Positions 1-12,560 are shown, counted from the first letter of the stretch. The stretch: 64,000 nucleotides of DNA from Vulcanimicrobiota bacterium (GCA_050250895.1 JBFWNU010000001.1:1672008-1736007); one strand, 5' to 3'. The notes: a model not told the origin generated them from the letters alone. A program made the numbers and translations.

Positions 1-2
1 TT

Positions 3-974
3 CTGCGCGTCACCTATGAGCGCGAGGCTCTGGCTGATGTGCACGGCCACGCCCGCGAGTTTCTCGAGAACGAAATCTGTGGGGTGCTGGTGGGTGAGGT
101 CTGCCAGGACGGTCAAGGTCCTTTCGTCTGGGTGAAAGCGGCGATTCGCGGGGCCCACGCCAAGGAAAAGCGCACCGAGGTCGCTTTCACACAAGAGACC
201 TGGGAGACCATCCACAAGACCAAGGACGAGCGCTATCCCAAGCTGCAGATTGTCGGTTGGTATCACTCTCACCCCGGCTTTGGCGTCGAATTCTCCGAGA
301 TGGATATCTTCGTCCAGCAGAACTTCTTTCCGGCTCCTACTCAGATCGCGCTGGTGACCGACCCCCTGAGCGGCCAGCTGGCTATGCTGGTCTGCCGTGA
401 CAAGAAGCCTGTCTATCTCGAGCGTTTCTGGGTCGACGGCCGGGAGCACCAGGCCCAAACGCCCAGAGTGGCGTCAGCCTCCGGGGGTGGCGCCCCCGAC
501 CCGGCCACCGCCGAGAAGCTCAAGGCGGTCGAGACCCGCCTCAACCAGGTCATCGCCGCCGTGGATCGGCAGAGCACTTCACTGTATCGGTTCCAGGCGG
601 TTGCTCTGGGCATGCTGTTTGCGGCGCTGGCGTCCGGCCTGGCCTACAACGTTTGGAACGCTAGCAGCAAGACCTACAAGCCGCCCACCCTCAACAGCTA
701 CGCGCGGATTCCCGTCCAGGTTGGGGATCGCACCGTCTGGCTGGGCGTCCAGGTGGTCGACTGGGATGTGCCGCCTGAGCTCAACGCCGCTTACATCAAA
801 GCGGTGGAACGAAGACTGCAACTCGATTTTCCGCCTCCGCAGCAAGCGGTCCAGCCGTCGAGCGATTCGACGCCAACCGCATCCGAGACCCCGACCGAGA
901 CTTCCACCCCGGCCGAGCCAACGCCGGCCGAGACTTCGACCCCTGTTGACACAGCCACCCCTGAGGACCACTGA
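3..974 (+). CDS. JAB/MPN (JAMM) isopeptidase with coiled coil, TM helix and Pro/Thr-rich tail; 5'-truncated by window edge
   Basis: EICGVLVG...GWYHSHPGFGVEFSEMD fits the JAMM motif E-xn-HxH-x7-S-x2-D; frame is open back to position 3; hydrophobic VALGMLFAALASGLAYNVW. Confidence 0.85.
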   Translation: MRVTYEREALADVHGHAREFLENEICGVLVGEVCQDGQGPFVWVKAAIRGAHAKEKRTEVAFTQETWETIHKTKDERYPKLQIVGWYHSHPGFGVEFSEMDIFVQQNFFPAPTQIALVTDPLSGQLAMLVCRDKKPVYLERFWVDGREHQAQTPRVASASGGGAPDPATAEKLKAVETRLNQVIAAVDRQSTSLYRFQAVALGMLFAALASGLAYNVWNASSKTYKPPTLNSYARIPVQVGDRTVWLGVQVVDWDVPPELNAAYIKAVERRLQLDFPPPQQAVQPSSDSTPTASETPTETSTPAEPTPAETSTPVDTATPEDH

Positions 975-985
975 AAGGACCCGCC

Positions 986-2317
986 ATGCCCGAGAGAGAG
1001 TTTGCCTTGAAGATCACCCGCGAAGAGGCGATGGGAGAGCACGTCGATGACCTGTTGAAGCGCCAGAAGAGCCTTCGAGGCGAGTCGGCCGGTATCGACC
1101 GAGGCGGCAAGAAGGTCTGGTTTTACCAGAACTGGTTCGTCTTCATGATTGCCGGTTTGCTAGGAGCCTTGCTGGCCTGGGGTCTGCTCGAGCCCGCTTT
1201 TCAGGACCGGATCGAATGGCGCGGCACCCTCGAGACCCTCGACCTGCAGTCGGTTGCACCAGAGGGGCTCGAGGGCCAGGTTCAGGGCAAGTGCAAGGTG
1301 CGTGGCCAGGTCATCTACTTCTATCGCGACATGAAGCTGGCGGGATCGGGTGCGCCCTTCGACGCCAGCCAATTATCCATCGGCCAGGAGGTGGCATTCT
1401 ATATCGAGGGTGACGCAGTAGCCACCTATGTCGATCCAAATCCCCACGGGTCGTATTCTACCAGCAAGAGCCTGAGCGAACTCAGCAGTGCCTCGACCAT
1501 GGCGGCCATGGTGCTCTTTCCGCTGGTCGCCGGTATGGTGGGTCTTTTCATCGGAGCCGCCGACGGACTGGTCAGCCGGCTCATGGGTCGGGCCCTGGTC
1601 TGTGGTGGAGTGGGCCTGGTGGTGGGACTGATCGGCGGAGTCTTCTCTACCATCCTGGCCACCCTGGTCTACAATCTGCTGTCGGGGTGGGCCACCGATC
1701 ACACGGGCACGGCCGTGGCCGGCCTGAGCCTGTTCGGCTTCATGATGCAGGTGATCGCTCGCGCGCTGGGCTGGGCCCTGGCCGGACTGACCATGGGGCT
1801 GGGCCAGGGGATCGCCCTGCGTTCGTCGCGACTGGCCACTTACGGTCTGTTGGGCGGCGTCATCGGAGGTTTGCTGGGCGGGTTGTGCTTTGACCCCATC
1901 GACCTGCTGTTGCTGGGTGGCGACGGCCAGGTGAGCGCCCACCTGAGCCGCGGCGTCGGCATCGGCGTGATCGGCGCCGTGGTCGGCTTCACCATCGGCA
2001 TCGTCGAGCTGCTGGCTCGCGACAGCTGGCTGCAGATGCTCAAGGGGCCCCTTACCGGCAAGGAATTTCTGCTCTACAAAGACACGATGGTGCTGGGCGC
2101 CTCTCCCAAGTGCGACATCTATCTTTTTAGCGACGACCAGGTGCTGCCGATGCACGGCCAGATGCGCAGCGTGGGCGAAGAGACCGAGATCGAATCGCTG
2201 GACAGCGAAAATCCGGTTCTGGTCAACGGCCGGCCGGTGACCAGGTGTCGCCTCAACGGAGGCGATCAGATCACCATCGGCAAGACGGTCTTCTCCTACC
2301 GAAAGAAAAATCGATGA
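986..2317 (+). CDS. Multi-pass Gly-rich membrane protein with C-terminal FHA domain
   Basis: Many GxxxG-rich hydrophobic segments; C-terminal LGASPKCDIYL...PMHG...VLVNGRPV...LNGGDQITIGKTVF has the FHA pattern with a degenerate GR motif. Confidence 0.8.
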   Translation: MPEREFALKITREEAMGEHVDDLLKRQKSLRGESAGIDRGGKKVWFYQNWFVFMIAGLLGALLAWGLLEPAFQDRIEWRGTLETLDLQSVAPEGLEGQVQGKCKVRGQVIYFYRDMKLAGSGAPFDASQLSIGQEVAFYIEGDAVATYVDPNPHGSYSTSKSLSELSSASTMAAMVLFPLVAGMVGLFIGAADGLVSRLMGRALVCGGVGLVVGLIGGVFSTILATLVYNLLSGWATDHTGTAVAGLSLFGFMMQVIARALGWALAGLTMGLGQGIALRSSRLATYGLLGGVIGGLLGGLCFDPIDLLLLGGDGQVSAHLSRGVGIGVIGAVVGFTIGIVELLARDSWLQMLKGPLTGKEFLLYKDTMVLGASPKCDIYLFSDDQVLPMHGQMRSVGEETEIESLDSENPVLVNGRPVTRCRLNGGDQITIGKTVFSYRKKNR

Positions 2318-2874
2318 TCTGCCAGATCTGCCAGTGCCCGCTCGCAGAGGGCGAGCCGCGCCACACCTGTGGCGAGTGCAAGACGCCCTATCACCAGGAG
2401 TGCTACGAAGACAACCAGGGCTGCGCGGTCTATGGCTGCGCCAACGTGCCCAACACTGAGCAACTCGAGTCGTTCGAGGTGCCTACCGGCTACTGGGGGC
2501 AAGAAGATTGGCCCTGTCCCAACTGCGGCAAGCTGATCAAGGCGGTGGCCAAGCGCTGTAAGCACTGCGCCACCGTGTTCAATTCGGACCGGCCTCAAGA
2601 GCGCACGGAGTATCAGCAGGGCCGGCAGCTGCAGGTCGCCCGCAGCAGCACTCAGACCGGGGTGCTGGCCATCCTGGGTCTGTCGTTGCTGCCTTTCACC
2701 GCCCCGGTGGCGGCCGTGGCTGGCCCGCTGTGGTGGGCCAGCCGTCGTGACCACGTGAACAGCCTCGACGCTCTCCACGCCGGCTTACTGCGGGTGGGAG
2801 TGGGTGTGGCCTGGCTCGAGACCTTCTTGATGGGCTCTTTTGCCCTGGCCTATCTGATGAAAGGAGGGACTTGA
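2314..2874 (+). CDS. Prokaryotic RING-like zinc finger plus zinc ribbon plus TM helices (putative E3)
   Basis: CQIC...CGEC...HQECY...GCAVYGC RING-like pattern, then CPNC...CKHC ribbon, then two hydrophobic segments; ATGA overlap with upstream stop. Confidence 0.75.
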   Translation: MICQICQCPLAEGEPRHTCGECKTPYHQECYEDNQGCAVYGCANVPNTEQLESFEVPTGYWGQEDWPCPNCGKLIKAVAKRCKHCATVFNSDRPQERTEYQQGRQLQVARSSTQTGVLAILGLSLLPFTAPVAAVAGPLWWASRRDHVNSLDALHAGLLRVGVGVAWLETFLMGSFALAYLMKGGT

Positions 2875-3353
2875 TGCGACACCGCTTGCGCCGCTTGACG
2901 GCCGACTATTCGATGGTCTATCACGCCTTCTCGAGCCATCCTCACATCAAACTGCTATCGGCCGAGGGTGAGCCGCCCGAGAAGTATGTCTTCGAGTTCT
3001 CGCTACCCTCGCTGGTGCCGGGCCAGAAAGAGTCGCCTCCGGTGCCCGGCAACGTGCACCGGGCCGAGGTTTATCTGCCGGCCGACTATCCTCGCCGGCC
3101 GCCTTTTGCCCGTATGATCACCCCGGTCTACCATCCCAACATCGACCCCCAGAAAATCTGCATCGGCGACCACTGGAGCGCCGCTCAGACCCTGCAGCAG
3201 CTGGTGGTACAGATCGCCGAGATGCTCTGCTTTCAGGCCTATAACGTCAAGAGTCCGCTCAACGCCGAGGCGGCCGTCTGGGTGGGCCAGAACCTGGGCC
3301 GTCTGCCGCTGCTCAAGGCCGATCTGGGAGCCGGCTCACCACAGCCCTCCTAG
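2874..3353 (+). CDS. Ubiquitin-conjugating enzyme E2 (UBC fold)
   Basis: LRRLTADY N-terminal helix, YLPADYPRRPP, TPVYHPNIDPQKICI (HPN plus catalytic Cys), HWSAAQTL, SPLNAEAA; TGATG overlap. Confidence 0.9.
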   Translation: MRHRLRRLTADYSMVYHAFSSHPHIKLLSAEGEPPEKYVFEFSLPSLVPGQKESPPVPGNVHRAEVYLPADYPRRPPFARMITPVYHPNIDPQKICIGDHWSAAQTLQQLVVQIAEMLCFQAYNVKSPLNAEAAVWVGQNLGRLPLLKADLGAGSPQPS

Positions 3354-3710
3354 CCGCAAGAACCACAAGCCCAGGATGGTCAGCGCCACTCCGATGAAGG
3401 CCCTCTGGCTCAGGCCCGGCACCGGCAGGTCATAGCCGGCCGCCCGAGCGGTGTAAACGATGGCCCCAACCCAAAAAAGTGGATAGAGCACCAGGCTGAG
3501 GATGTTCTCGTGGGCGGCTTCGCCCCAGCGACCGGCCGACAGAGCCACGAAAGCGTGACTCATGCCGCAACCCGGGCACTTCAATCCGGTGGTAGCGCGC
3601 AGTACACACACGGTGGCGTCGCCGGGGGCGGGGGTGAGGAAAAACGAGACCACCAGGCAGGCCCATAAAAAGATGGCCGTGGCCGCGGCCTTGTGGCGCG
3701 GGTCGGTCAA
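3336..3710 (-). CDS. DUF2752-family membrane protein
   Basis: CVLRATTGLKCPGCGMSHAF motif between TM helices; TTG start overlapping the Uma2 stop. Confidence 0.75.
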   Translation of the reverse strand: MTDPRHKAAATAIFLWACLVVSFFLTPAPGDATVCVLRATTGLKCPGCGMSHAFVALSAGRWGEAAHENILSLVLYPLFWVGAIVYTARAAGYDLPVPGLSQRAFIGVALTILGLWFLRLGGLW

Positions 3711-4297
3711 TCCTGGTCCGGCACAGGAGCCATCAGGTGGCCCACCACCAGCGCGGGCCCGGGCACTTGAGCCGGGGTGATCTCGTCGTCGGGTTGCCAC
3801 ACCCGACGCAGGCTGTAAGAGGCGCCGAACGGGGCGGTGGTGTCTTTTTGCGGCTGCAGGTGTTGCTCGAGACAACGATCGACCAGGTTGACGATCCAAT
3901 ATTCCGGCACCCCGGCACTGGCGTAGAGGCTGGTCTTCTTGAGGCGATCGTAGGCCAGTGAAGTGAAGGACACCTCGATGACCAGATCGGCGCAGGTCGG
4001 ATGGCGGCGGGCCGCCCCTTGCTGTTCGGGGCGAACGAGGGCGAAGTCTGGCTCGGGCTCGGAGTATTCGCCCACCTGGATGGGTAAGCCGACTCGGACC
4101 AGATGGGTCTGTCCGTAGGCCCGCACCAGCAAGTTATTGGCCAGGGCCACCGAATCACTATGCATTTTATCGTGAGCGCTCAAGGGCAGAACCTCTCCAT
4201 CGATCAACTCCACCCGCTCATGGGGCCCGATCACCCCGACCTCGGCCATCTTGTTGTATTCGTCCACCGTCCAGCGACGCGGTGAGAGTTCTAGCAT
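3707..4297 (-). CDS. Uma2 family endonuclease-like protein
   Basis: RRWTVDEYNKM, RVELIDGE, SEPEPD, LVIEVS, KTSLYASAGVPEYWIVNL. Confidence 0.9.
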   Translation of the reverse strand: MLELSPRRWTVDEYNKMAEVGVIGPHERVELIDGEVLPLSAHDKMHSDSVALANNLLVRAYGQTHLVRVGLPIQVGEYSEPEPDFALVRPEQQGAARRHPTCADLVIEVSFTSLAYDRLKKTSLYASAGVPEYWIVNLVDRCLEQHLQPQKDTTAPFGASYSLRRVWQPDDEITPAQVPGPALVVGHLMAPVPDQD

Positions 4298-4369
4298 AGC
4301 CACTACTTCTGCGAGCCTGGCGGCCATCCCTCGGGCGGGGCTTTGAGGCCGGGTTGCGAACGAGTGGGG

Positions 4370-5683
4370 GTGGAGAAGTTTGCCTTTCTTCGTCTGGACC
4401 GGCTGCCGTCGCCGGACCGTGACGATCTTTTGTTGCAGTTGCCAGGACGGATGCGCGAGATCGGCTATGACCAACAGCTGGCCAGCTCGGCGGCGGCGCT
4501 CAACCAGGGGCCGGTGGCCCTGGCCGCTCTGTTACGGCGCACTGCCGATGGCCAGCCGGCTCAGCTGGCCTATCGCCTCTGGCTGCTGGCTCAGTGGCTC
4601 TCGTCGGAGCAGGCCGCCCAGGTCTTCGGCCCGGATTTGCTCGAGCGGTTACTGGAATGGGGTCTGCTGGCCGAGGTGGAGGGCCGGGTAGGAGCGACCG
4701 TCGATCTCTATCCGGTGGGCGGCGACTATCTGGCCACCGACCGCCAGATCGGCCTGGGTAGACGCCTGGAGGCTGTCTACCCCCCCGGCATCGATAGCTA
4801 CTCTTTACGTCGGATGTTGCCTTCCTTTAAGGTTGAGCGGGCTCTCGACCTTTGTACCGGCTCGGGTATTCAAGCTCTGGGTCTTAAGGCGGATCACACC
4901 GAGGCCGTCGACCTGTCTCCAAGAGCGGCCGAGTTTGCCGACTTCAATTTCGCCCTCAACCAGCCGAGCCGCAGCCGGGCCATCCATCAGGGAGCGCTTT
5001 TCGAGCCGCTGGCTGACCGGCCCTATGACCTGATTGTGAGCAACCCGCCCTGGGTGCCGACCCCTGACGGCGAGGTCGAACTCTTCCGAGGCGGCGGCCT
5101 CGATGGCGAGTTCATCACCCGTCAGATCTTCGAAGGGGCGGCCCAATGGCTGGCTCCCGAGGGCCGTTTGGTGGTCTATGTCGAGTACCCTCATCTGAAG
5201 GGTCAGTCCTATCCCGAACGAGTTCGCGGGTGGCTGGGCCAGGGCGATTGGGGGATCGCCCTGGTCAACATGCTCCACCTGTCCACCGAAGAATACGTGG
5301 CCGGCCAGGTGGCCAGCCACACCGGCCAGGATATCGACCGCGAGTTCGAACGCTGGATGCTGGGATATGAGCGGGCCGGCATCGAGGCCATGAGTCGGGC
5401 GGTGGTCTATGTGGTGCCAGGTGGCCCGTTCGAGGTGTGCCTCGAGGCCAGCCACCCGACCGAAAGCCAGGACTGGGTCGGGTCCTGGCTCGAGAATCTC
5501 GGTCGGTCGGGCACTCGGCTGCATTCGAAAGCGCAGCTCTGGACCAGCGGCGAGCGGGCTCGGGTAGAATGGCCCGGTAGCTGTCTTCATCCGGTGGAAC
5601 TCGACCCGACCGAGCAGGCCGCGCTGACGGGTCAGGCGGGCCAATTCGCAGTCGCGCTTCGGGCCCGGATGATCTTGGAGTAG
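4370..5683 (+). CDS. Class I SAM-dependent methyltransferase (HemK/MTS-like)
   Basis: LDLCTGSG motif I and VSNPPW motif IV; start uncertain (4343 or 4370). Confidence 0.8.
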   Translation: MEKFAFLRLDRLPSPDRDDLLLQLPGRMREIGYDQQLASSAAALNQGPVALAALLRRTADGQPAQLAYRLWLLAQWLSSEQAAQVFGPDLLERLLEWGLLAEVEGRVGATVDLYPVGGDYLATDRQIGLGRRLEAVYPPGIDSYSLRRMLPSFKVERALDLCTGSGIQALGLKADHTEAVDLSPRAAEFADFNFALNQPSRSRAIHQGALFEPLADRPYDLIVSNPPWVPTPDGEVELFRGGGLDGEFITRQIFEGAAQWLAPEGRLVVYVEYPHLKGQSYPERVRGWLGQGDWGIALVNMLHLSTEEYVAGQVASHTGQDIDREFERWMLGYERAGIEAMSRAVVYVVPGGPFEVCLEASHPTESQDWVGSWLENLGRSGTRLHSKAQLWTSGERARVEWPGSCLHPVELDPTEQAALTGQAGQFAVALRARMILE

Positions 5684-5718: not shown

Positions 5719-7050
5719 TCATCCTCCGTCGCTGGAAGTGTTGCCGGGCCAGAAGTGGCGCAGCACCGCGTCGCCAAATCGCCGCATCGGCCAGGGGCGT
5801 GTCTGCTTGAGAAAGCGGGCCCAGTTGGGGGGCGCGCCCAGAGCCATGTGGTTGTCGGCGCAATAGCCGGGTTCGGCCAGGTGGATCGAGATACCGCTGG
5901 CAAAGCCGCGATGTTGGTGGTCGGTGCGCTGGGCCACCACGGTTTGCTCGAGCACCTGGCGGGTGGCCTCGACCGCCTGTTTGACCGCCGGGTCGGTGCA
6001 GTGCCAGTCGAGCTGCTGGAGCACTTCGCCGAGGTCACGAAGCTTGACCAGCGGGTTGAAGACGGCCCCCAGGGGACCGGGCGCCTGGGCCAGCGGGGTG
6101 GTGGCGGCCAGGGCGTCGAGGATCTGGCTGCGATGGCCGTTCTCGAGGGCCTGCCCGAGCGCCTCGCCGAGATTGTCGACTCGACCGGCCAGCAGGGGGA
6201 TGTGGTGGGTGTCGATGGCCGACAGCGGGCCGGAACGACCGCCGGCCAGCTGGACCAGCTTCTGGGCCGACTGGCGCGGGTCATCGCCCAGGGCTTTGGC
6301 CAGGCTGCCCGAGGGTAGCCCCGTGACGTTCATCAGGTCTTCTGAGGCGACGATGAATCGAGCCGTGGGAGCCAGATGCTGGAGCACTTCCAGGCTGGCC
6401 CCGCGACACTGCTCGAGCAACAGCAACTCGACCTTCTTACCGCGCTGGTCGCGCAGGGCCAGCAGCCCTTCGGTGACCGTATTCTTGGCCACGCCGCCAT
6501 AGTGGGTCGGGCCGCCGTGGCCAGCCAGATTCACGGCCAGAAACCGCGAGGGAAACTGGCGCGCCTTGTCGGTCAGGTTCTCGACCAACTGGGCAGTGCT
6601 CGGCTGCCGGGTCTGGTCGCTCGCTTCGAGCAGTTGCCCGTCGCCGAGATTGTAGGTTCGGGTGCCGCGCCAGTCGGGTTGCTGACCCACGTCGCGATGA
6701 AGATTGGCCCGGCCCAACTCGTTGAGCCCGCTCAAGGCCAACACCGGCGAGAAGAGGGCACCGAGCAATAGCGGGGGCCAGAGCAGGGCAGCCGCCGGAA
6801 TGGCCACCGCCCCCGCCAGTTGAGCCGCCCCCAGGGCTCGGGTCAACCACTTGTTGCTCGGTTTGCGACGCACCTGGGCCACCAGGTGGTGGTCGGCGGC
6901 ACCTGCCTCGAACGAATCGCCAAGCTTGCGCATAGCCCACGGTTCGGTATCGACGTGGGTGGCGTCGACCTGACTTAGGACCGTCCATGGCTTGGTTTGG
7001 GCCACCTTGCCCGGGGTTACCTGCCCGGGCAAAATACGACCAGGATTCAT
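5719..7050 (-). CDS. Clostripain-like (C11) cysteine peptidase domain protein with TM hairpin
   Basis: VNLAGHGG (His) and LLLEQCRGASLEV...FIVASED (Cys) resemble the clostripain dyad. Confidence 0.6.
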   Translation of the reverse strand: MNPGRILPGQVTPGKVAQTKPWTVLSQVDATHVDTEPWAMRKLGDSFEAGAADHHLVAQVRRKPSNKWLTRALGAAQLAGAVAIPAAALLWPPLLLGALFSPVLALSGLNELGRANLHRDVGQQPDWRGTRTYNLGDGQLLEASDQTRQPSTAQLVENLTDKARQFPSRFLAVNLAGHGGPTHYGGVAKNTVTEGLLALRDQRGKKVELLLLEQCRGASLEVLQHLAPTARFIVASEDLMNVTGLPSGSLAKALGDDPRQSAQKLVQLAGGRSGPLSAIDTHHIPLLAGRVDNLGEALGQALENGHRSQILDALAATTPLAQAPGPLGAVFNPLVKLRDLGEVLQQLDWHCTDPAVKQAVEATRQVLEQTVVAQRTDHQHRGFASGISIHLAEPGYCADNHMALGAPPNWARFLKQTRPWPMRRFGDAVLRHFWPGNTSSDGG

Positions 7051-7091: not shown

Positions 7092-8513
7092 TCAGGCTCG
7101 AAGCGCACAGTTCTTGACCGCCTCCATCAGGCTCGAAGGCGAGTCTGGGTGGGCATCAAACCAGGCCAGGAAGGCTTGCTCGAACATCTCGGCGGCCGTT
7201 TCTCCGGGCAGGGCCTCCAACTGAGCGATCAGTTCTTGTTGGCTCCTTACGCCCCGCGAGTCGTTTTGCGCGGCCAGGTCACCGCGAGCCACGGTTAGAA
7301 TCGCTTCGCGAGGGATGGACGCCCCTTTGCCGACCCCCTGGGCCGGCTTGTTAAAGGCCTCGATGATGGTACTTTCGTTAAGAGTAATCGAGTTCGGAAT
7401 CCAGCTTCTGTTGCTCTGAGCCTCGCGAAGAGTGTCGTCCAGCCTCTGGCTGCCCAAACAGGCCGCCCCCAGGCCGGCCATCGCTCCCAAGATTCCAACG
7501 AGCATGGCCCCCTCGGGCGGCACCACCAGGCAGATTCCTAGGGTTGCCCCTGCGGTCGCGGCCATCCCCAGACAGGTTGCGACGGTATTGCCCGCTCTGA
7601 CGCTTCGGGCCCAGCGCTGCTCGCTCTGGTTGAGGGGAGTAAAGCCGAAGTCAGAATAGGCGTCCCGGCATCGCCGAGTCACCTCCAGCAAGGTATCGCC
7701 TTCTACGTGCGTCACCGCCTGAGAGAGTTTTCGGTAGAATTTCGCTCGCTCGTGATCGAGGTTTTCCACCGCCAGAGCAGAGTGGGCCTGGAGGTGCTTC
7801 ACCACCTCCATCCGAGGCGCGGTAAGAGCGGTCAAGGCCGGCGTCATCGGCTTGCCGGCCATCTCCAGGGTCGCCTGGATGCGTTGCTTGTCGTCGGCAG
7901 CCAGCGAGAACGACGAGGCCTGTTGGGTCAGTCGCTCGCCAATCGAAGGCGGAAGACGGCGAAAGTCGGGGTCCAGGCGAAGAAGACTGGCCATGAAGAC
8001 AGGGTCGTCGCAAGAGGTCAACTCGGGCATCGTCACCTTCAGGTCGACCGAGCCGTCGGCATAGGCCCGGGAATAGAGCGTGTCGAGCCCAGACTCGAGA
8101 TAGACCTTGCGGGTGGCCTCGGGTTCGTCTTGCGAGCCCAATACCAGATCGTAGGCGGCTTTGCCTAGTGCGCCGAGAGTCACCTCGGGTTGGGCCATGT
8201 GCTTGAGGGCCACCAAACCACCTCGGAGCGCCGCCGACTGTCGCGTCGACGAGCCGATCTCGGCTGCCTTGCGCTGCAGGCTTCGCAAGGCTCGTCTCTG
8301 TCCGCGCGTCAGGTCGAGGTTGCGGCTGGCGTTCTCGAGAGCGAGCACAGCGCTGGCTGGCTTCTTTAGGGCCAGTTCGATCCAGCCTTCCAGTTGTCGG
8401 TCGAGCGGGGAGAACTGGATGTCGACCACATCCTGGACGGTAGCCGTCTGGCTGCTCGAGGCCCGAGACGCGGTCGTTCGAATTGGGGGCGAGGCTTGAT
8501 TGGAAATGAGCAT
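7092..8513 (-). CDS. Hypothetical protein with Ser/Thr-rich N-terminus and two TM helices
   Basis: Long ORF; AAAGGAG SD before ATG 8513. Confidence 0.65.
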   Translation of the reverse strand: MLISNQASPPIRTTASRASSSQTATVQDVVDIQFSPLDRQLEGWIELALKKPASAVLALENASRNLDLTRGQRRALRSLQRKAAEIGSSTRQSAALRGGLVALKHMAQPEVTLGALGKAAYDLVLGSQDEPEATRKVYLESGLDTLYSRAYADGSVDLKVTMPELTSCDDPVFMASLLRLDPDFRRLPPSIGERLTQQASSFSLAADDKQRIQATLEMAGKPMTPALTALTAPRMEVVKHLQAHSALAVENLDHERAKFYRKLSQAVTHVEGDTLLEVTRRCRDAYSDFGFTPLNQSEQRWARSVRAGNTVATCLGMAATAGATLGICLVVPPEGAMLVGILGAMAGLGAACLGSQRLDDTLREAQSNRSWIPNSITLNESTIIEAFNKPAQGVGKGASIPREAILTVARGDLAAQNDSRGVRSQQELIAQLEALPGETAAEMFEQAFLAWFDAHPDSPSSLMEAVKNCALRA

Positions 8514-8533
8514 GAGGATTCTCCTTTGTTGCC

Positions 8534-8598
8534 AGGCTACCGGGTAGCGGAAAACCAGGAGCAAAATCGAGGGGCCAGCCATGTAAAAAGGATGTTAC
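8534..8598 (-). promoter_or_regulatory. Direct-repeat site GTAACA-N5-TTTACA with candidate -10 TAGCCT
   Basis: Half-sites at 8593-8598 and 8582-8587; -10 at 8534-8539, 42 nt away. Confidence 0.45.
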
Positions 8599-9321: not shown

Positions 9322-9469
9322 GGCCAGCGGTTCGCGACTGGGCGCTTTCAGTCTTTCTTAAGCCTGGCGGGCTAGATTCAGGACAAGACCATGGGACCGT
9401 TGCCGGAAGTTCCACGCCATCTTCCTCCGGCACGCGCAGGGGGTCGACCCCAGACGAAAGGCGTGGAAA

Positions 9470-10438
9470 GTGAAAGTCCAACCCCTCACCAAACAACAGG
9501 CCGTCGGCCGATTGCAATCCGAAGAAGCCCAATTCTTGCGGGATAATCGCATGGACCGGGCCACCGCCATGATCGAGGCCCGGGAGACCCTGGAGCGGGG
9601 AAAAGGCGATGACCTGTGGGAGATCTACACTCAGGCCCGCCAGGACGAAGCCCGTTGGGAACGCGTGGTAGGGATGATTGTGCCCAAAGAGCGCACCGAC
9701 GGTGAAAAGGCGAAGACCTTTATCGGCCTGAGTGCTGGCGGCGTCGCCGTCGGGGTGGCCGGCCATTATCTGCGCACGGGCGACCTGGGTCAAGCTCTGG
9801 CCCTGGGTGGGGCTGCCTCGTTCCTCTGTCTGACGGATGCGCTTTTTCTGGCCATCGGGGCCGACACCGGCGTGGACTTGACCCGGACCCTCGGGGCGAT
9901 CAATGCCACCGCAGTGATTGCGGGCATGACCGCCAATCATTGGCTGCCCGCCTTGCTCGCCGGGGGAGCCACCCTGACGCTGGCAACCACCGTCGGGTCG
10001 GTGGCCGCTCATCAGGCCGGCAAGAATCGACAGATCCAGCAAGTCATCACCGACAATCGGCAACTCTTCGAAGCCCCCTCGAGCCCCTCGACTCAACTGG
10101 GCTCGGCCATCACCAAGAGGCACATCCTGGAGACGCTGGCCAAGCTCAGCACCAAATCCAGGGAAGAGGGAGACTATCAGGGGGCGATGGATGCTCGTGA
10201 GGACATGCAGCGTCTCGCCAACTTGAAGGGTGACACCTATCACGACATGTTTCTGGGCACCCGCGGCGACGAGCGCGGACGGAAGCTGCTCACTCGCTAC
10301 GCCGATGCGATCCTGGATGACGCTCGCAACCGCGAAGAGATCCAGGCGCTTCTTCAGGGGGATCAGGCGGGCACGCAGCTGCTGATCGAAGAGGATGCGA
10401 TCGAGGTGGGGGACCAGCATCTGCCGGTCTCGTCTTGA
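9470..10438 (+). CDS. Hypothetical membrane protein
   Basis: 322-aa ORF with about four hydrophobic segments; ends IEEDAIEVGDQHLPVSS. Confidence 0.65.
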   Translation: MKVQPLTKQQAVGRLQSEEAQFLRDNRMDRATAMIEARETLERGKGDDLWEIYTQARQDEARWERVVGMIVPKERTDGEKAKTFIGLSAGGVAVGVAGHYLRTGDLGQALALGGAASFLCLTDALFLAIGADTGVDLTRTLGAINATAVIAGMTANHWLPALLAGGATLTLATTVGSVAAHQAGKNRQIQQVITDNRQLFEAPSSPSTQLGSAITKRHILETLAKLSTKSREEGDYQGAMDAREDMQRLANLKGDTYHDMFLGTRGDERGRKLLTRYADAILDDARNREEIQALLQGDQAGTQLLIEEDAIEVGDQHLPVSS

Positions 10439-10484
10439 TGGAGCCCCGGGAAGACATGAACTCCTGGCGGCGAAGTGTAGCTTT

Positions 10485-12560
10485 ATGCGACGAGGCCTGA
10501 GCCTGCTAGAGATCGTGGTCGCCACCGCCCTGCTGCTGGTGGCGGCCGGTCTATTCTTGCTGAACACCCGGCCGGCTACCTCGAAAGCAGGCGCGCGGTC
10601 CCTGGCTCAGTTGGTGGCCGAAGAGCTGCGTCGGGCCCGCCAACTGGCCATTAGCCAGGGCCAACCCGTGGCCGTTTGCTTTCCCAGCGATGAAGACCGG
10701 TTTAGCCATTGCCACAGTCTCTACGTGTTGCGCGGTTGGGACCAGCCTCGGATCGAACGGCGGCGCGACTTCTCGCAAGAGTTCAAGGGGGTGGCCCTGT
10801 TCAACGGCCGCTGGCCCTCCACCCCGCCGATGACGGTAGCGGCACCGGCCACGGAGAAGTTTCCTGGCTTTGATGTCGCGGTCTGGTTGGGTGGGTCAGC
10901 CAGCGACTTCTGCTATGTCTTTTTGCCCGACGGCAGCGTGACCAGTAACGGCCTGCCCTCGTTTGACCAGGCCTTCCACCTGGTGTCGGCCCACGGCCTG
11001 CGTTATGCCGGGGCAACTGGTTCGTCGCCCATTGTGCGCCAACTGGAAGGAACCGGTGAGGCCTACACGGTGTCGGTCAGCTTTTCAGGAGCCGTCGAGA
11101 TGAACACCGGAGTGACCGGCTCGGCTCTGACCGCCACGGTCGAGTTGAATGGCGAGCCAGGCGCCGCCTTGATAGACGAGGACGGCCCCTTTACGGGTAA
11201 TGTCACCATCCGCGAGGTCACGGTGTTGTCGGCCTCGCGAGTCGAGACCTTGCCCTCGGGCGTCTCTGCCACGTTAGGTCCCAACGAGTATCTCGAACTC
11301 GGGGTGTTGGCCTCGGCCGACCAGGGCGGCGAACTGTATTGCGAGTGGACCAGCCGCGGGGGCGGCACCTTCAGCTATCCCGGTCGCACCCGCATGCGTT
11401 GGGACGCCGAGGCGGGTGGTTGGCGTTCTGATTGGGTCTGGCGCCCGTCGCTGGATTCGGCCGACGGCCAGGTCTTCGAGTTGACCTGCGAGGTCGAGGA
11501 GGCTACCAGTGGCGTCACGGTCCAGACGCGCGACGCCGACTTTCCCAACGGTAGCAATCAGGTTCAGGTCGTGCGCCAGGGTCAGGTTCTATTCGAGAAG
11601 GACTTGGCCGGTCGGCGCCAGATCTTTCTGCGTAACCTCGACGGCAACTACGAGCAACACCTGATCACCAGCCAGGCTAATGACCGCCAACCCCAGGCCT
11701 CGGCCGATGGCTCGCGCATCGCTTTTCGTTCCGACCGAGCCGGCACCTACGACATCTATGGGACCAGTTTCGAAGCGGCCGGATTGGCGGGGGATACCCA
11801 GCGGCCCCAGGCCGAACGGGTGGGTCGTCTGGTGCGCATCTCGAATAGCCCCGGCATCGAGACCGTCCCCACCATCTCGCCAGCCGGCGACCGGGTGGCC
11901 TGGAAATGGGTGGACGCGGTAGGCGGGCTGAATCTTTGTCTGCGCCGCTGGGACGGGGGACCTCCCAGCGGGAACTACGTGGTCACCGCCCTGGGGCGTC
12001 CCTCGGTGCTCGAAGACAGATTGTGTTGGACCGCCGACGGGCGCAATCTACTGTTTGACGGACGACCGCCGGGTAGCACCGACGCGGTGCCCCTGCGAGC
12101 AGTCATTCGCAAACTGGCCAACGTGCCCTCGGGTCCGGTGGTCCAGAACCTGGCAGCCAACGGCGATCCCACTCGTGACGTCAACGACCCCGGTAGCAAC
12201 AACCAGAGTCCTCACCTGACCCGGGACGGCAACTGGTTGTTTTTTGCCTCCGATCGGGGGCGGCCCGAGAACGACCTGCGAATCTATCGGGTGCGCTGGA
12301 ATCCGGCCACCAACGATGTGGCCCAACAGGGCGTCGACGCTCTGGGCAACCCCGTCTTCCACGCTCCCCAGGTGATCACGTTTTCGGGACCGAGCGGCGC
12401 GCTGAGCTTGCCGACCACGAATACCGATGGATCGTTGTTGTTCGTGACCGAGATCGCGGGTAGTGAGCACCGCCTCTGGCGGGTGGAGTTGGCCTCGGGT
12501 CAGGCCGTCTCCTTGACCGACTCGGGCGAGTTGGAGGCCAACCCCAGTTGGACGCCTTGA
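10485..12560 (+). CDS. Pilin/pseudopilin (GspH/FimT-like N-terminus) fused to TolB/PD40-like beta-propeller
   Basis: Class III signal MRRG|LSLLE plus hydrophobic helix; repeats QPQASADGSRIAFRSDR, PTISPAGDRVAW, SPHLTRDGNWLFFASDR. Confidence 0.75.
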   Translation: MRRGLSLLEIVVATALLLVAAGLFLLNTRPATSKAGARSLAQLVAEELRRARQLAISQGQPVAVCFPSDEDRFSHCHSLYVLRGWDQPRIERRRDFSQEFKGVALFNGRWPSTPPMTVAAPATEKFPGFDVAVWLGGSASDFCYVFLPDGSVTSNGLPSFDQAFHLVSAHGLRYAGATGSSPIVRQLEGTGEAYTVSVSFSGAVEMNTGVTGSALTATVELNGEPGAALIDEDGPFTGNVTIREVTVLSASRVETLPSGVSATLGPNEYLELGVLASADQGGELYCEWTSRGGGTFSYPGRTRMRWDAEAGGWRSDWVWRPSLDSADGQVFELTCEVEEATSGVTVQTRDADFPNGSNQVQVVRQGQVLFEKDLAGRRQIFLRNLDGNYEQHLITSQANDRQPQASADGSRIAFRSDRAGTYDIYGTSFEAAGLAGDTQRPQAERVGRLVRISNSPGIETVPTISPAGDRVAWKWVDAVGGLNLCLRRWDGGPPSGNYVVTALGRPSVLEDRLCWTADGRNLLFDGRPPGSTDAVPLRAVIRKLANVPSGPVVQNLAANGDPTRDVNDPGSNNQSPHLTRDGNWLFFASDRGRPENDLRIYRVRWNPATNDVAQQGVDALGNPVFHAPQVITFSGPSGALSLPTTNTDGSLLFVTEIAGSEHRLWRVELASGQAVSLTDSGELEANPSWTP

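Follow-up and report, generated by a model that had tools for sequence, protein, structure and literature searches.

A nine-gene operon of a Vulcanimicrobiota bacterium predicted to encode a membrane-associated ubiquitin-like conjugation and deconjugation system

Introduction

In this report, we focus on a nine-gene operon whose 3' half opens a stretch of 64,000 nucleotides (nt) from a Vulcanimicrobiota bacterium (G000:C1:1672008-1736007; hereafter the window, meaning this whole stretch), carried by a 9.5-Mb genome that is 99.6% complete. Judging from its sequence, this operon probably encodes a complete system for conjugating a ubiquitin-like protein (Ubl), and for deconjugating it again, at the cytoplasmic face of the inner membrane. 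It brings together a YukD-like Ubl, a ThiF-type activating enzyme (E1), a canonical conjugating enzyme (E2), a RING protein that is a candidate membrane ligase (E3) and a JAB/JAMM peptidase, along with an FHA membrane protein, two B-box-like membrane proteins and one small soluble protein. Bacterial operons that combine an E1, a canonical E2, a RING protein, a JAMM peptidase and a Ubl bear on the origin of the ubiquitin system, and the only tested examples that we found in the literature are the soluble archaeal system of Caldiarchaeum and two RING-less systems, Bil and the cyclic oligonucleotide-based antiphage signalling system (CBASS). The window operon adds a clean, complete and intact example, and it brings further details: a fixed nine-gene cassette with B-box partners, Ubl precursors with tails, a non-canonical FHA domain and a non-defence context.

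Organization of the operon

The operon lies at about 1,668,804-1,675,360 of G000:C1. To describe it in full, we use L002, which is the window preceded by 15 kb of upstream sequence, so that a window position is the L002 position minus 15000; the operon then spans L002 11797-18353, and window positions 1-3353 hold its 3' half. The listing of open reading frames (ORFs) fills window positions 3-3353 with four genes of the plus strand, for the JAB, FHA, RING and E2 proteins, which the earlier note had described as coupled and which do follow one another with overlaps or an 11-nt gap (Table 1). The JAB gene starts 75 nt upstream of the window edge, and its stop codon (972-974) is followed by the 11-nt gap and then by the ATG of the FHA gene at 986. 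The stop of the FHA gene and the start of the RING gene overlap as ATGA (2314-2317), so that the RING gene most likely starts at ATG 2314 rather than at GTG 2245. The RING stop and the E2 start overlap in turn as TGATG (2872-2876), with AAAGGAGG ahead of the E2 start, and the E2 stop is found at 3351-3353. Further upstream, the genes are on the same strand and are joined by 4-nt overlaps or by direct abutment, the E1 gene overlapping both the Ubl and the JAB genes by 4 nt. From this arrangement, the operon appears to be translationally coupled throughout.

The E1 and Ubl genes lie outside the window, and their presence just upstream of it had been predicted from the window alone. Inspection of the upstream DNA showed a YukD-like Ubl gene directly before a ThiF-family E1 gene, so this prediction was correct. 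As the same genes are found in the same order in dozens of genomes, the existence of the operon goes far beyond what chance would give. A scan for promoters and terminators returned nothing usable. Among sequencing runs, no RNA run was listed for the operon, and four DNA runs each contained only 6-7% of the sampled words.

Table 1. Genes of the operon and the adjacent DUF2752 gene, with their positions (in the window unless L002 is given), lengths in amino acids (aa), family matches and transmembrane (TM) helices predicted from hydropathy
Gene product	Position	Strand	Family match or feature	TM helices (residues)
B-box-like protein 1, 131 aa	L002 11797-12192	same strand as operon	DUF4190-like TM pair	two
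B-box-like protein 2, 210 aa	L002 12192-12824	same strand as operon		three
Small soluble protein, 223 aa	L002 12821-13492	same strand as operon	no Pfam match	none
YukD-like Ubl, 89 aa	L002 13493-13762		Pfam YukD, E 3.1e-12; ends ...IIAG, then stop	none
ThiF-type E1, 389 aa	L002 13759-14928		ThiF, E 1.9e-53	none
JAB/JAMM peptidase, 349 aa (full gene)	L002 14925-15974; window part 3-974 (3' 323 codons)	+		one, 219-247
Six-TM FHA membrane protein, 443 aa	986-2317	+	Pfam FHA, Yop-YscD_cpl	47-72, 169-200, 199-232, 281-312, 320-345; weaker near 243-265
Candidate membrane E3, RING and zinc ribbon, 186 aa	2314-2874	+	Prok-RING_1	two, C-terminal
Soluble canonical E2 (UBC fold), 159 aa	2874-3353	+	UQ_con, E 1.2e-14	none
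DUF2752 small membrane protein, outside the core	3336-3899	-	DUF2752, E 3e-14	

The tag and the enzymes that would attach and remove it

The Ubl matches the Pfam YukD family at 47.5 bits, against a cut-off of 27, and it has a C-terminal Gly that is available for activation. The aligned Ubls share the end ...LRLQPEITAG, of which the window copy has its own version (Table 1), and residues A88 and G89 are invariant in all 40 sequences compared. The termini differ in what follows this Gly: among 44 aligned orthologues, 10 (including that of the window) end at the Gly, and the other 34 carry variable and unrelated tails of 1 to about 35 residues. An invariant Gly followed by such variable tails suggests that the tag is processed and conjugated through this Gly. 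In the archaeal Rpn11/Ub pair, trimming of the precursor is described as exposing the Gly (PMC6043591). The sole conserved lysine of the Ubl is K53 (98%). When the Ubl profile is compared with solved structures, it gives individually insignificant matches to residues 46-76 of ubiquitin (per-domain E about 180), and the low E-values that it obtains with polyubiquitin chains are due to their repeats.

The E1 retains the residues expected to handle this tag. The conserved positions include the nucleotide loop G33-x-G-x-x-G38, D57, R68, K81 and D125, a Zn site made of C166, C169, C254 and H257, and a second CxxC...CxxC pair at 304-330. Cys185, found in an RRSC motif of the crossover region, is invariant and is the putative catalytic Cys; across 47 sequences, conservation reaches at least 90% for each of the nucleotide loop, the Zn ligands and C185. 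The best solved matches of this protein are adenylation domains of eukaryotic E1s, namely UBA7 (1e-29), UBA1, SAE2 and UBA3 (to 1e-20), ahead of ThiF (6e-18) and MoeB (7e-14).

The E2, which is the sole UQ_con match in the genome, scores 54.6 bits against a cut-off of 27. Its H88-P89-N90 motif and its C97 (alignment numbering) are invariant in 21 of 21 aligned relatives, and they are encoded at window positions 3132-3140 and 3159-3161, respectively. Its profile aligns to the eukaryotic UBE2N and UBE2D with the HPN motif and the Cys in register. As for the peptidase, it matches both Pfam JAB (E 1.2e-10) and Prok-JAB (E 1.4e-10), and at least 90% of 46 orthologues share each of its five JAMM residues, E50, H114 (codon at window positions 264-266), H116, S124 and D127. 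Its single TM helix is followed by a tail rich in Pro, Thr and Glu. The HPN motif and catalytic Cys of the E2 and the intact JAMM motif of the peptidase, which the earlier note had read in the window, are thus present and conserved across relatives.

A small protein is encoded between B-box-like protein 2 and the Ubl. A tblastn search of the other loci gave no match for this 223-aa protein, but its first ~90 residues are homologous to an ORF of ~100 aa that lies between the B-box 2 and Ubl genes in 14 of 36 loci (best phmmer E 2.7e-7, and an iterated hidden Markov model, HMM). The window copy carries an extra Pro-rich tail of ~130 residues. Cluster searches gave two weak leads: Helicase_IV_N (score 0.90) and bPH_2, a bacterial PH-like domain (score 0.89, in 28% of one cluster).

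Membrane anchoring, the candidate E3 and the FHA protein

The finger of the RING protein matches Prok-RING_1 (Pfam PF14446) at 28.5 bits (E 1.5e-6), that is, 0.6 bit below the gathering cut-off of 29.1, and an orthologue in a genome of the same phylum reaches 36.3 bits. This N-terminal finger has the C4HC3 ligands of a binuclear treble-clef finger (C3, C6, C19, C22, H27, C30, C37 and C42), of which C22, H27, C30, C37 and C42 are invariant and C19 is kept at 90% or more in 48 sequences, C3 and C6 being kept at about 80% in 53 sequences. It is followed by a zinc ribbon with conserved ligands (C68, C71, C82 and C85). The Ile between the first two Cys is kept, as is an aromatic residue after the sixth ligand (Y here, W in at least 90% of sequences), and these two positions are described as needed for E2 binding in the reconstituted archaeal system (PMC5654768). 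Prokaryotic RINGs have been described as C4HC3 fingers with a longer last spacing (PMC11354881). Compared with solved structures, the profile of the RING protein picks up a PHD finger (1.4e-4) and the RING E3s EL5 (1.1e-3) and Arkadia (0.0097), all of them weakly. With its eight conserved metal ligands and its two TM helices, the protein agrees with the RING-like finger with TM helices proposed earlier, and the natural reading of these features is that of a dedicated membrane E3, an activity which its sequence suggests.

Two more proteins, with predicted binuclear zinc fingers, precede the Ubl. They score 19.9 and 21.6 bits against zf-B_box, for a cut-off of 24.1, and both keep the ligands C-x2-H-x8-C-x2-C-x4-C-x2-C-x9-C-x2-C at 90% or more. 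For B-box-like protein 2, the cluster search matches only clusters named 'hypothetical'.

The FHA protein is another membrane partner. It consists of a conserved cytoplasmic N-terminus, a first TM helix (47-72), a poorly conserved loop (73-168), a Gly-rich TM bundle (169-345) and a C-terminal FHA fold at about 350-440, which matches Pfam FHA (E 4e-8) and Yop-YscD_cpl (E 3.7e-14). The family is large, with 568 cluster representatives at E<=1e-30 among 1.84 billion. When the domain is compared with GarA/OdhI (E 5.8e-9), GA is found in place of GR, LPMH in place of SxxH and NP in place of NG. Among 45 family members, the Arg of GR is found in none, the Ser of SxxH in 2 and the Asn of NG in 9, and the His is kept in 44. 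Since the Arg and Ser that bind phosphothreonine are gone in the whole family, the domain is not a phosphothreonine reader. The FHA fold on a multi-TM protein that had been recognized in the window therefore stands, with six TM helices, and it is the canonical phosphothreonine-binding residues that are missing. The protein probably scaffolds or presents substrates without reading phosphorylation. In Bacillus subtilis, YukD is described as docking on the FHA domains of YukB and as stabilizing the complex (PMC12637312), which gives rise to the idea that the present FHA domain docks the present Ubl. A prediction of the complex between the FHA domain (340-443) and the Ubl scored 0.00 against a mark of 0.32 in a single run without controls, and it speaks neither for nor against binding.

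TM helices were assigned by simple hydropathy, as opposed to a trained topology predictor, both on the window proteins and on family averages, and the two agree. On this basis, five of the nine operon proteins are membrane-anchored. Among the four encoded in the window, these are the JAB, FHA and RING proteins, that is, the three of four that the earlier note had counted. The catalytic and finger domains would lie on the cytoplasmic face.

Distribution and genomic context

This type of operon is widespread in environmental bacteria. A search with the E2 recovered 799 protein clusters at E<=1e-5; its own cluster is 98% identical, and, among the matches listed, the next 119 clusters are 62-72% identical, a few of their names pointing to Armatimonadetes, Acidobacteriota and Verrucomicrobia. 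When a single genome per species was scanned, 61 loci were obtained, which the submitters label as Planctomycetota, Verrucomicrobiota, Acidobacteriota, Kiritimatiellota, Lentisphaerota, Gemmatimonadota, Thermodesulfobacteriota, Actinomycetota, Bacillota and, in one case, Bathyarchaeota, bearing in mind that the labels of metagenome-assembled genomes may be wrong. The nine proteins were compared with 64 loci by tblastn, and the E2 was found in 64, the RING protein in 56, JAB in 51, the FHA protein in 50, the E1 in 49, the Ubl in 46 and the two B-box proteins in 38 and 39, the misses being mostly on short contigs. Forty-one loci extend 6.9 kb or more upstream of an intact E2 ORF; the order Ubl-E1-JAB-FHA-RING-E2 is found in 37 of these, in Planctomycetota, Verrucomicrobiota, Acidobacteriota and other phyla, and the B-box pair also stands in front in 35. 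Of the loci used, L054 comes from a complete planctomycete genome, L043 and L045 come from Prosthecobacter, and L012 and L020 are examples with a tailed Ubl.

The departures from this order are few. The core order is broken in L039, L059, L062 and L063, and no B-box pair was detected in L044 and L047. According to the family HMMs, L026 and L062 have the E2 only and L039 has the RING protein and the E2 only, and the loci of Actinomycetota and Bacillota are rearranged variants with extra JAB, FHA and RING genes. L039 is the locus labelled Bathyarchaeota: at 9376-10444, it carries an E2 with 59% identity to that of the window and a RING gene that seems to be broken into two frames, and the other cassette genes were not found in the 9 kb upstream.

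Two other genomes of the same phylum are worth describing. In G007 (locus L069, G007:C4, 3059-7198), an FHA membrane protein, two Prok-RING_1 proteins and an E2 of 347 aa with a long C-terminal extension are encoded directly after lepA; Ubl, E1 and JAB genes are not beside this cluster, and pilin-like genes (N_methyl, DUF4900) are found downstream. In G035 (locus L070, G035:C25, about 9425-12013, minus strand), there is a compact cluster of Ubl, E1, E2 and JAB without FHA or RING, which is a different and smaller subtype.

When the ORFs flanking 43 complete loci and the window were clustered, the only further conserved neighbour was a DUF2752-like small membrane protein, found in 6 of the 43 loci and, in 4 of those 6, encoded directly downstream of the E2 on the same strand. 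In the window, the DUF2752 and E2 genes are convergent and share 18 nt at the 3' end of the E2 gene. This protein may be a loose accessory, and the long Arg/Pro-rich N-terminus of the listed ORF is probably untranslated.

Around the operon itself, the upstream region (L002 5930-10966, minus strand) encodes a class-III aminotransferase, a flavin monooxygenase-like oxidoreductase, a radical SAM protein with a HMPTM-type N-terminal zinc ribbon and a small acyl-carrier-like protein. About 830 nt separate these divergent genes from the operon, and they have the look of a distinct biosynthetic cluster. Downstream, we find a Uma2-family putative endonuclease (3707-4474, minus strand), a 446-aa methyltransferase with a DUF7059 N-domain (4343-5683, plus strand), a 443-aa protein with a weak clostripain (Peptidase_C11) match (5719-7050, minus strand) and a 496-aa protein with no Pfam match (7092-8582, minus strand).

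Proposed mechanism

If these proteins act as their families suggest, the E1 would adenylate the C-terminal Gly of the Ubl and take the Ubl onto Cys185, and it would then hand it over to the catalytic Cys of the E2 (C97, alignment numbering). The membrane RING protein would bind the charged E2 and direct the transfer of the Ubl to lysines of membrane-proximal targets, and the B-box proteins may be further E3s or adaptors. The membrane JAB peptidase would remove the tag and, in the relatives whose Ubl carries a tail, would also mature the precursor. The FHA membrane protein would serve as a phospho-independent scaffold or substrate adaptor. The thioester transfer, the E3 activity and the conjugation at the membrane are all predicted in this scheme from motifs, conservation and hydropathy. 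At the level of sequence, the interpretation given in the earlier note is supported.

Several points weigh against it. The Ubl ends in AG and not in GG and is YukD-like, and the YukD that has been studied is described as acting without conjugation (PMC12637312). The RING protein of the window scores below the Pfam cut-off of Prok-RING_1, the B-box proteins are under theirs as well, so that their labels come from the conserved ligand patterns, and Cys185 is a putative catalytic Cys of the E1. The relatives of the same phylum carry only partial or different cassettes, and no downstream reader or protease for tagged proteins is encoded in the nine-gene operon.

As to what the system would do for the cell, we lean towards a cellular function directed at membrane proteins over phage defence. 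A more specific proposal, which we regard as rather unlikely, is that bacteria with complex envelopes use the cassette for housekeeping, as a machine akin to endoplasmic-reticulum-associated degradation (ERAD). A membrane complex of the RING protein, the two B-box proteins (as extra E3s or adaptors) and the FHA scaffold would then put the Ubl on proteins of the inner membrane, so as to control their quality or regulate their turnover, and JAB would recycle the tag. If this were true, the cassette would be a bacterial forerunner or analogue of eukaryotic membrane-RING ubiquitination, as opposed to a phage defence, and prokaryotic B-box domains would gain a role in a ubiquitin-like pathway.

Alternative explanations

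The first alternative is that of an antiphage defence of the Bil or CBASS-Cap2/Cap3 kind, in which infection would lead to the Ubl being attached to phage proteins, for instance at the membrane while the phage enters or is assembled, with JAB keeping the reaction in check. The sporadic distribution of the operon fits this proposal, as the E2 is rare in its own phylum (3 of 400 other genomes) and is found in none of 15 genomes of the same family, and a 2023 preprint is cited for predicting that uncharacterized operon families with Ubl, E1, E2, RING and deubiquitinase genes are antiviral (PMC10557695). The E1 and JAB also match the E1-E2 and JAB models of PADLOC (E 5e-15 and 3e-6), but these matches are to the generic domains only, and seven of the nine proteins, including the E2, RING, FHA and Ubl proteins, match nothing. 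With the Bil models in particular, we obtained only a partial BilD match (E 7e-7, residues 27-89, about 60 residues), generic JAB matches and no match for the Ubl or the E2.

The neighbourhood of the cassette also argues against a defence system. Of the 232 flanking ORFs that qualified by length (100 aa or more) and distance (within 3.5 kb), we compared 126, from 26 loci, with Pfam. They are housekeeping genes, for tRNA synthetases, LpxK, KdtA, MetK, AdoHcy hydrolase, aminotransferases, transporters and oxidoreductases. None of these 126 ORFs belongs to an integrase, transposase, restriction or known defence family, the nearest to a mobile or defensive function being one Fic-like_C/HATPase_c_4 protein and one Smr protein. 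In a tree of the E1 (46 rows, quick search, LG+G4), there is some mixing of phyla, with 13 label changes for a minimum of 9, as a defence system would have it, but the phyla are mostly clustered, since shuffled labels give a mean of 23.8; the E1 of the window is not placed in any well-supported clade and shares 62% identity with its nearest row. Within the main clade, identity is 56-68% for the E2 and 57-70% for the Ubl across phyla, which is unusually high for defence genes. Taken together, the housekeeping flanks, the clustered E1 tree and the generic PADLOC matches favour a self-contained cassette, passed on vertically for the most part but with some transfer, that sits in ordinary chromosomal settings. 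Such a setting speaks weakly against a defence-island role, and we hold the antiphage explanation to be distinctly unlikely.

The second alternative is that the Ubl is not conjugated at all and is, like YukD, a non-covalent assembly factor of a membrane complex, the E1, E2 and JAB being regulatory relics or serving another purpose. The YukD-like character of the Ubl and its weak match to EccD are consistent with this, as is the gene for a membrane FHA protein that cannot read phosphothreonine in the same operon; cryo-electron microscopy of the B. subtilis complex is described as showing YukD bound to the FHA domains of a membrane ATPase (PMC12637312). Against this, the catalytic residues of the E1, E2 and JAB are all kept and strongly conserved, and an invariant Gly placed before variable, dispensable tails makes sense only if the carboxylate of this Gly is used. 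In addition, Pfam matched neither an EssC-type ATPase nor the WXG100 family in the operon. A purely non-covalent role is thus very improbable.

Finally, we rejected the proposal, to which we give next to no chance, that the Ubl and E1 form a sulfur-carrier pair of the ThiS/MoaD type working with the upstream radical SAM, carrier-protein and aminotransferase genes: these do lie within 6 kb, and the E1 does match the ThiF and MoeB models (all far below cut-offs), but they are on the opposite strand, about 830 nt off, and are not conserved beside the cassette in other loci, the E1 is nearer to eukaryotic E1s than to ThiF or MoeB, and the E2, RING and JAB of the operon are proteins that sulfur-carrier systems lack.

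Comparison with known systems

Burroughs, Iyer and Aravind (2011, Mol Biosyst) reportedly predicted operons of Ubl, E1, E2, RING and JAB genes with YukD-like Ubls and defined the Prok-RING_1 domain, and the abstract of the same paper is said to assign prokaryotic B-box domains to functions unrelated to ubiquitin. The window operon belongs with the Prok-RING_1/E1/E2/JAB/YukD-Ubl operons of that prediction: it has the same set of parts, a YukD-like Ubl predicted to be conjugatable, an HPN-type E2 and, on a membrane protein, a finger akin to Prok-RING_1 that scores just under the Pfam cut-off. The link with B-box proteins in 35 of 41 loci would differ from the view of B-box function attributed to that work. 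Later papers treat such bacterial operons as known but uncharacterized. The 2011 study is cited as the source of such operon predictions in several of them (PMC11354881, PMC3417536, PMC5654768, PMC10557695), one of which describes mobile prokaryotic operons with an E2, sometimes an E3, and a JAB protein (PMC3417536). Our literature searches did not find an experimental study of this operon type.

Another close system, which has been reconstituted in vitro, is the Ub/E1/E2/small RING/Rpn11 operon of Candidatus Caldiarchaeum subterraneum (PMC5654768; PMC6043591). As it is described there, its parts resemble those found here: a tag and a JAMM peptidase, together with an E1 of eukaryotic type, a canonical E2 and a RING E3 (a candidate E3 here), all in one compact operon. 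In Caldiarchaeum, the JAMM enzyme cuts the tail off the tag precursor, and the Ile and the aromatic residue through which the RING contacts the E2 are kept in the present family. The Caldiarchaeum proteins are described as soluble; here, five proteins are anchored in the membrane, the RING and JAB proteins among them, and the FHA and B-box membrane partners are additions with respect to the archaeal operon. The tag of Caldiarchaeum is given as a member of the ubiquitin family that ends in GG, and the present one is YukD-like and ends in AG. The archaeal RING has been compared with the RING-H2 family (PMC5654768), whereas the present finger is C4HC3 with a wide last pair.

With Bil and with the Cap2/Cap3 module of type II CBASS, the operon shares a ThiF-type E1, an enzyme of the E2 fold and a JAB peptidase, and the Bil Ubl is described as conjugated via its C-terminus (PMC10557695, PMC11601596). 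Within what these sources describe, Bil and CBASS have no RING E3 and no membrane anchors, unlike the operon studied here. The Bil E2 is described with a CEHH motif, in contrast to the HPN motif of the UQ_con type found here, and CBASS is described as fusing its E1 and E2 and as modifying a cyclase, whereas the E1 and E2 genes are separate here and stand four genes apart. No CD-NTase or cyclase family was found among the operon proteins with Pfam and PADLOC. These data do not place the operon among the CBASS or Bil systems, which the earlier note mentions as background.

The type VIIb secretion system of B. subtilis, with YukD and YukB (EssC), offers another point of likeness, as a Ubl of the YukD family is encoded there with a membrane protein that bears FHA domains (PMC12637312). 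The system, as described, has no E1, E2, RING or JAB. Conversely, the present operon has no secretion ATPase and no WXG100 substrate.

In eukaryotes, MARCH/K3 and Doa10 are membrane RING E3s with an N-terminal C4HC3 finger (RING-CH) followed by TM helices. The likeness to the present RING protein lies in a cytoplasmic C4HC3 finger followed by two TM helices, with a soluble E2 acting at the membrane. Sequence searches with the RING protein did not single out RING-CH, the best solved matches being a PHD finger and RING-H2 E3s, all weak. Should the system encoded by the window operon tag membrane proteins, membrane-RING ubiquitination would have a prokaryotic analogue in it.

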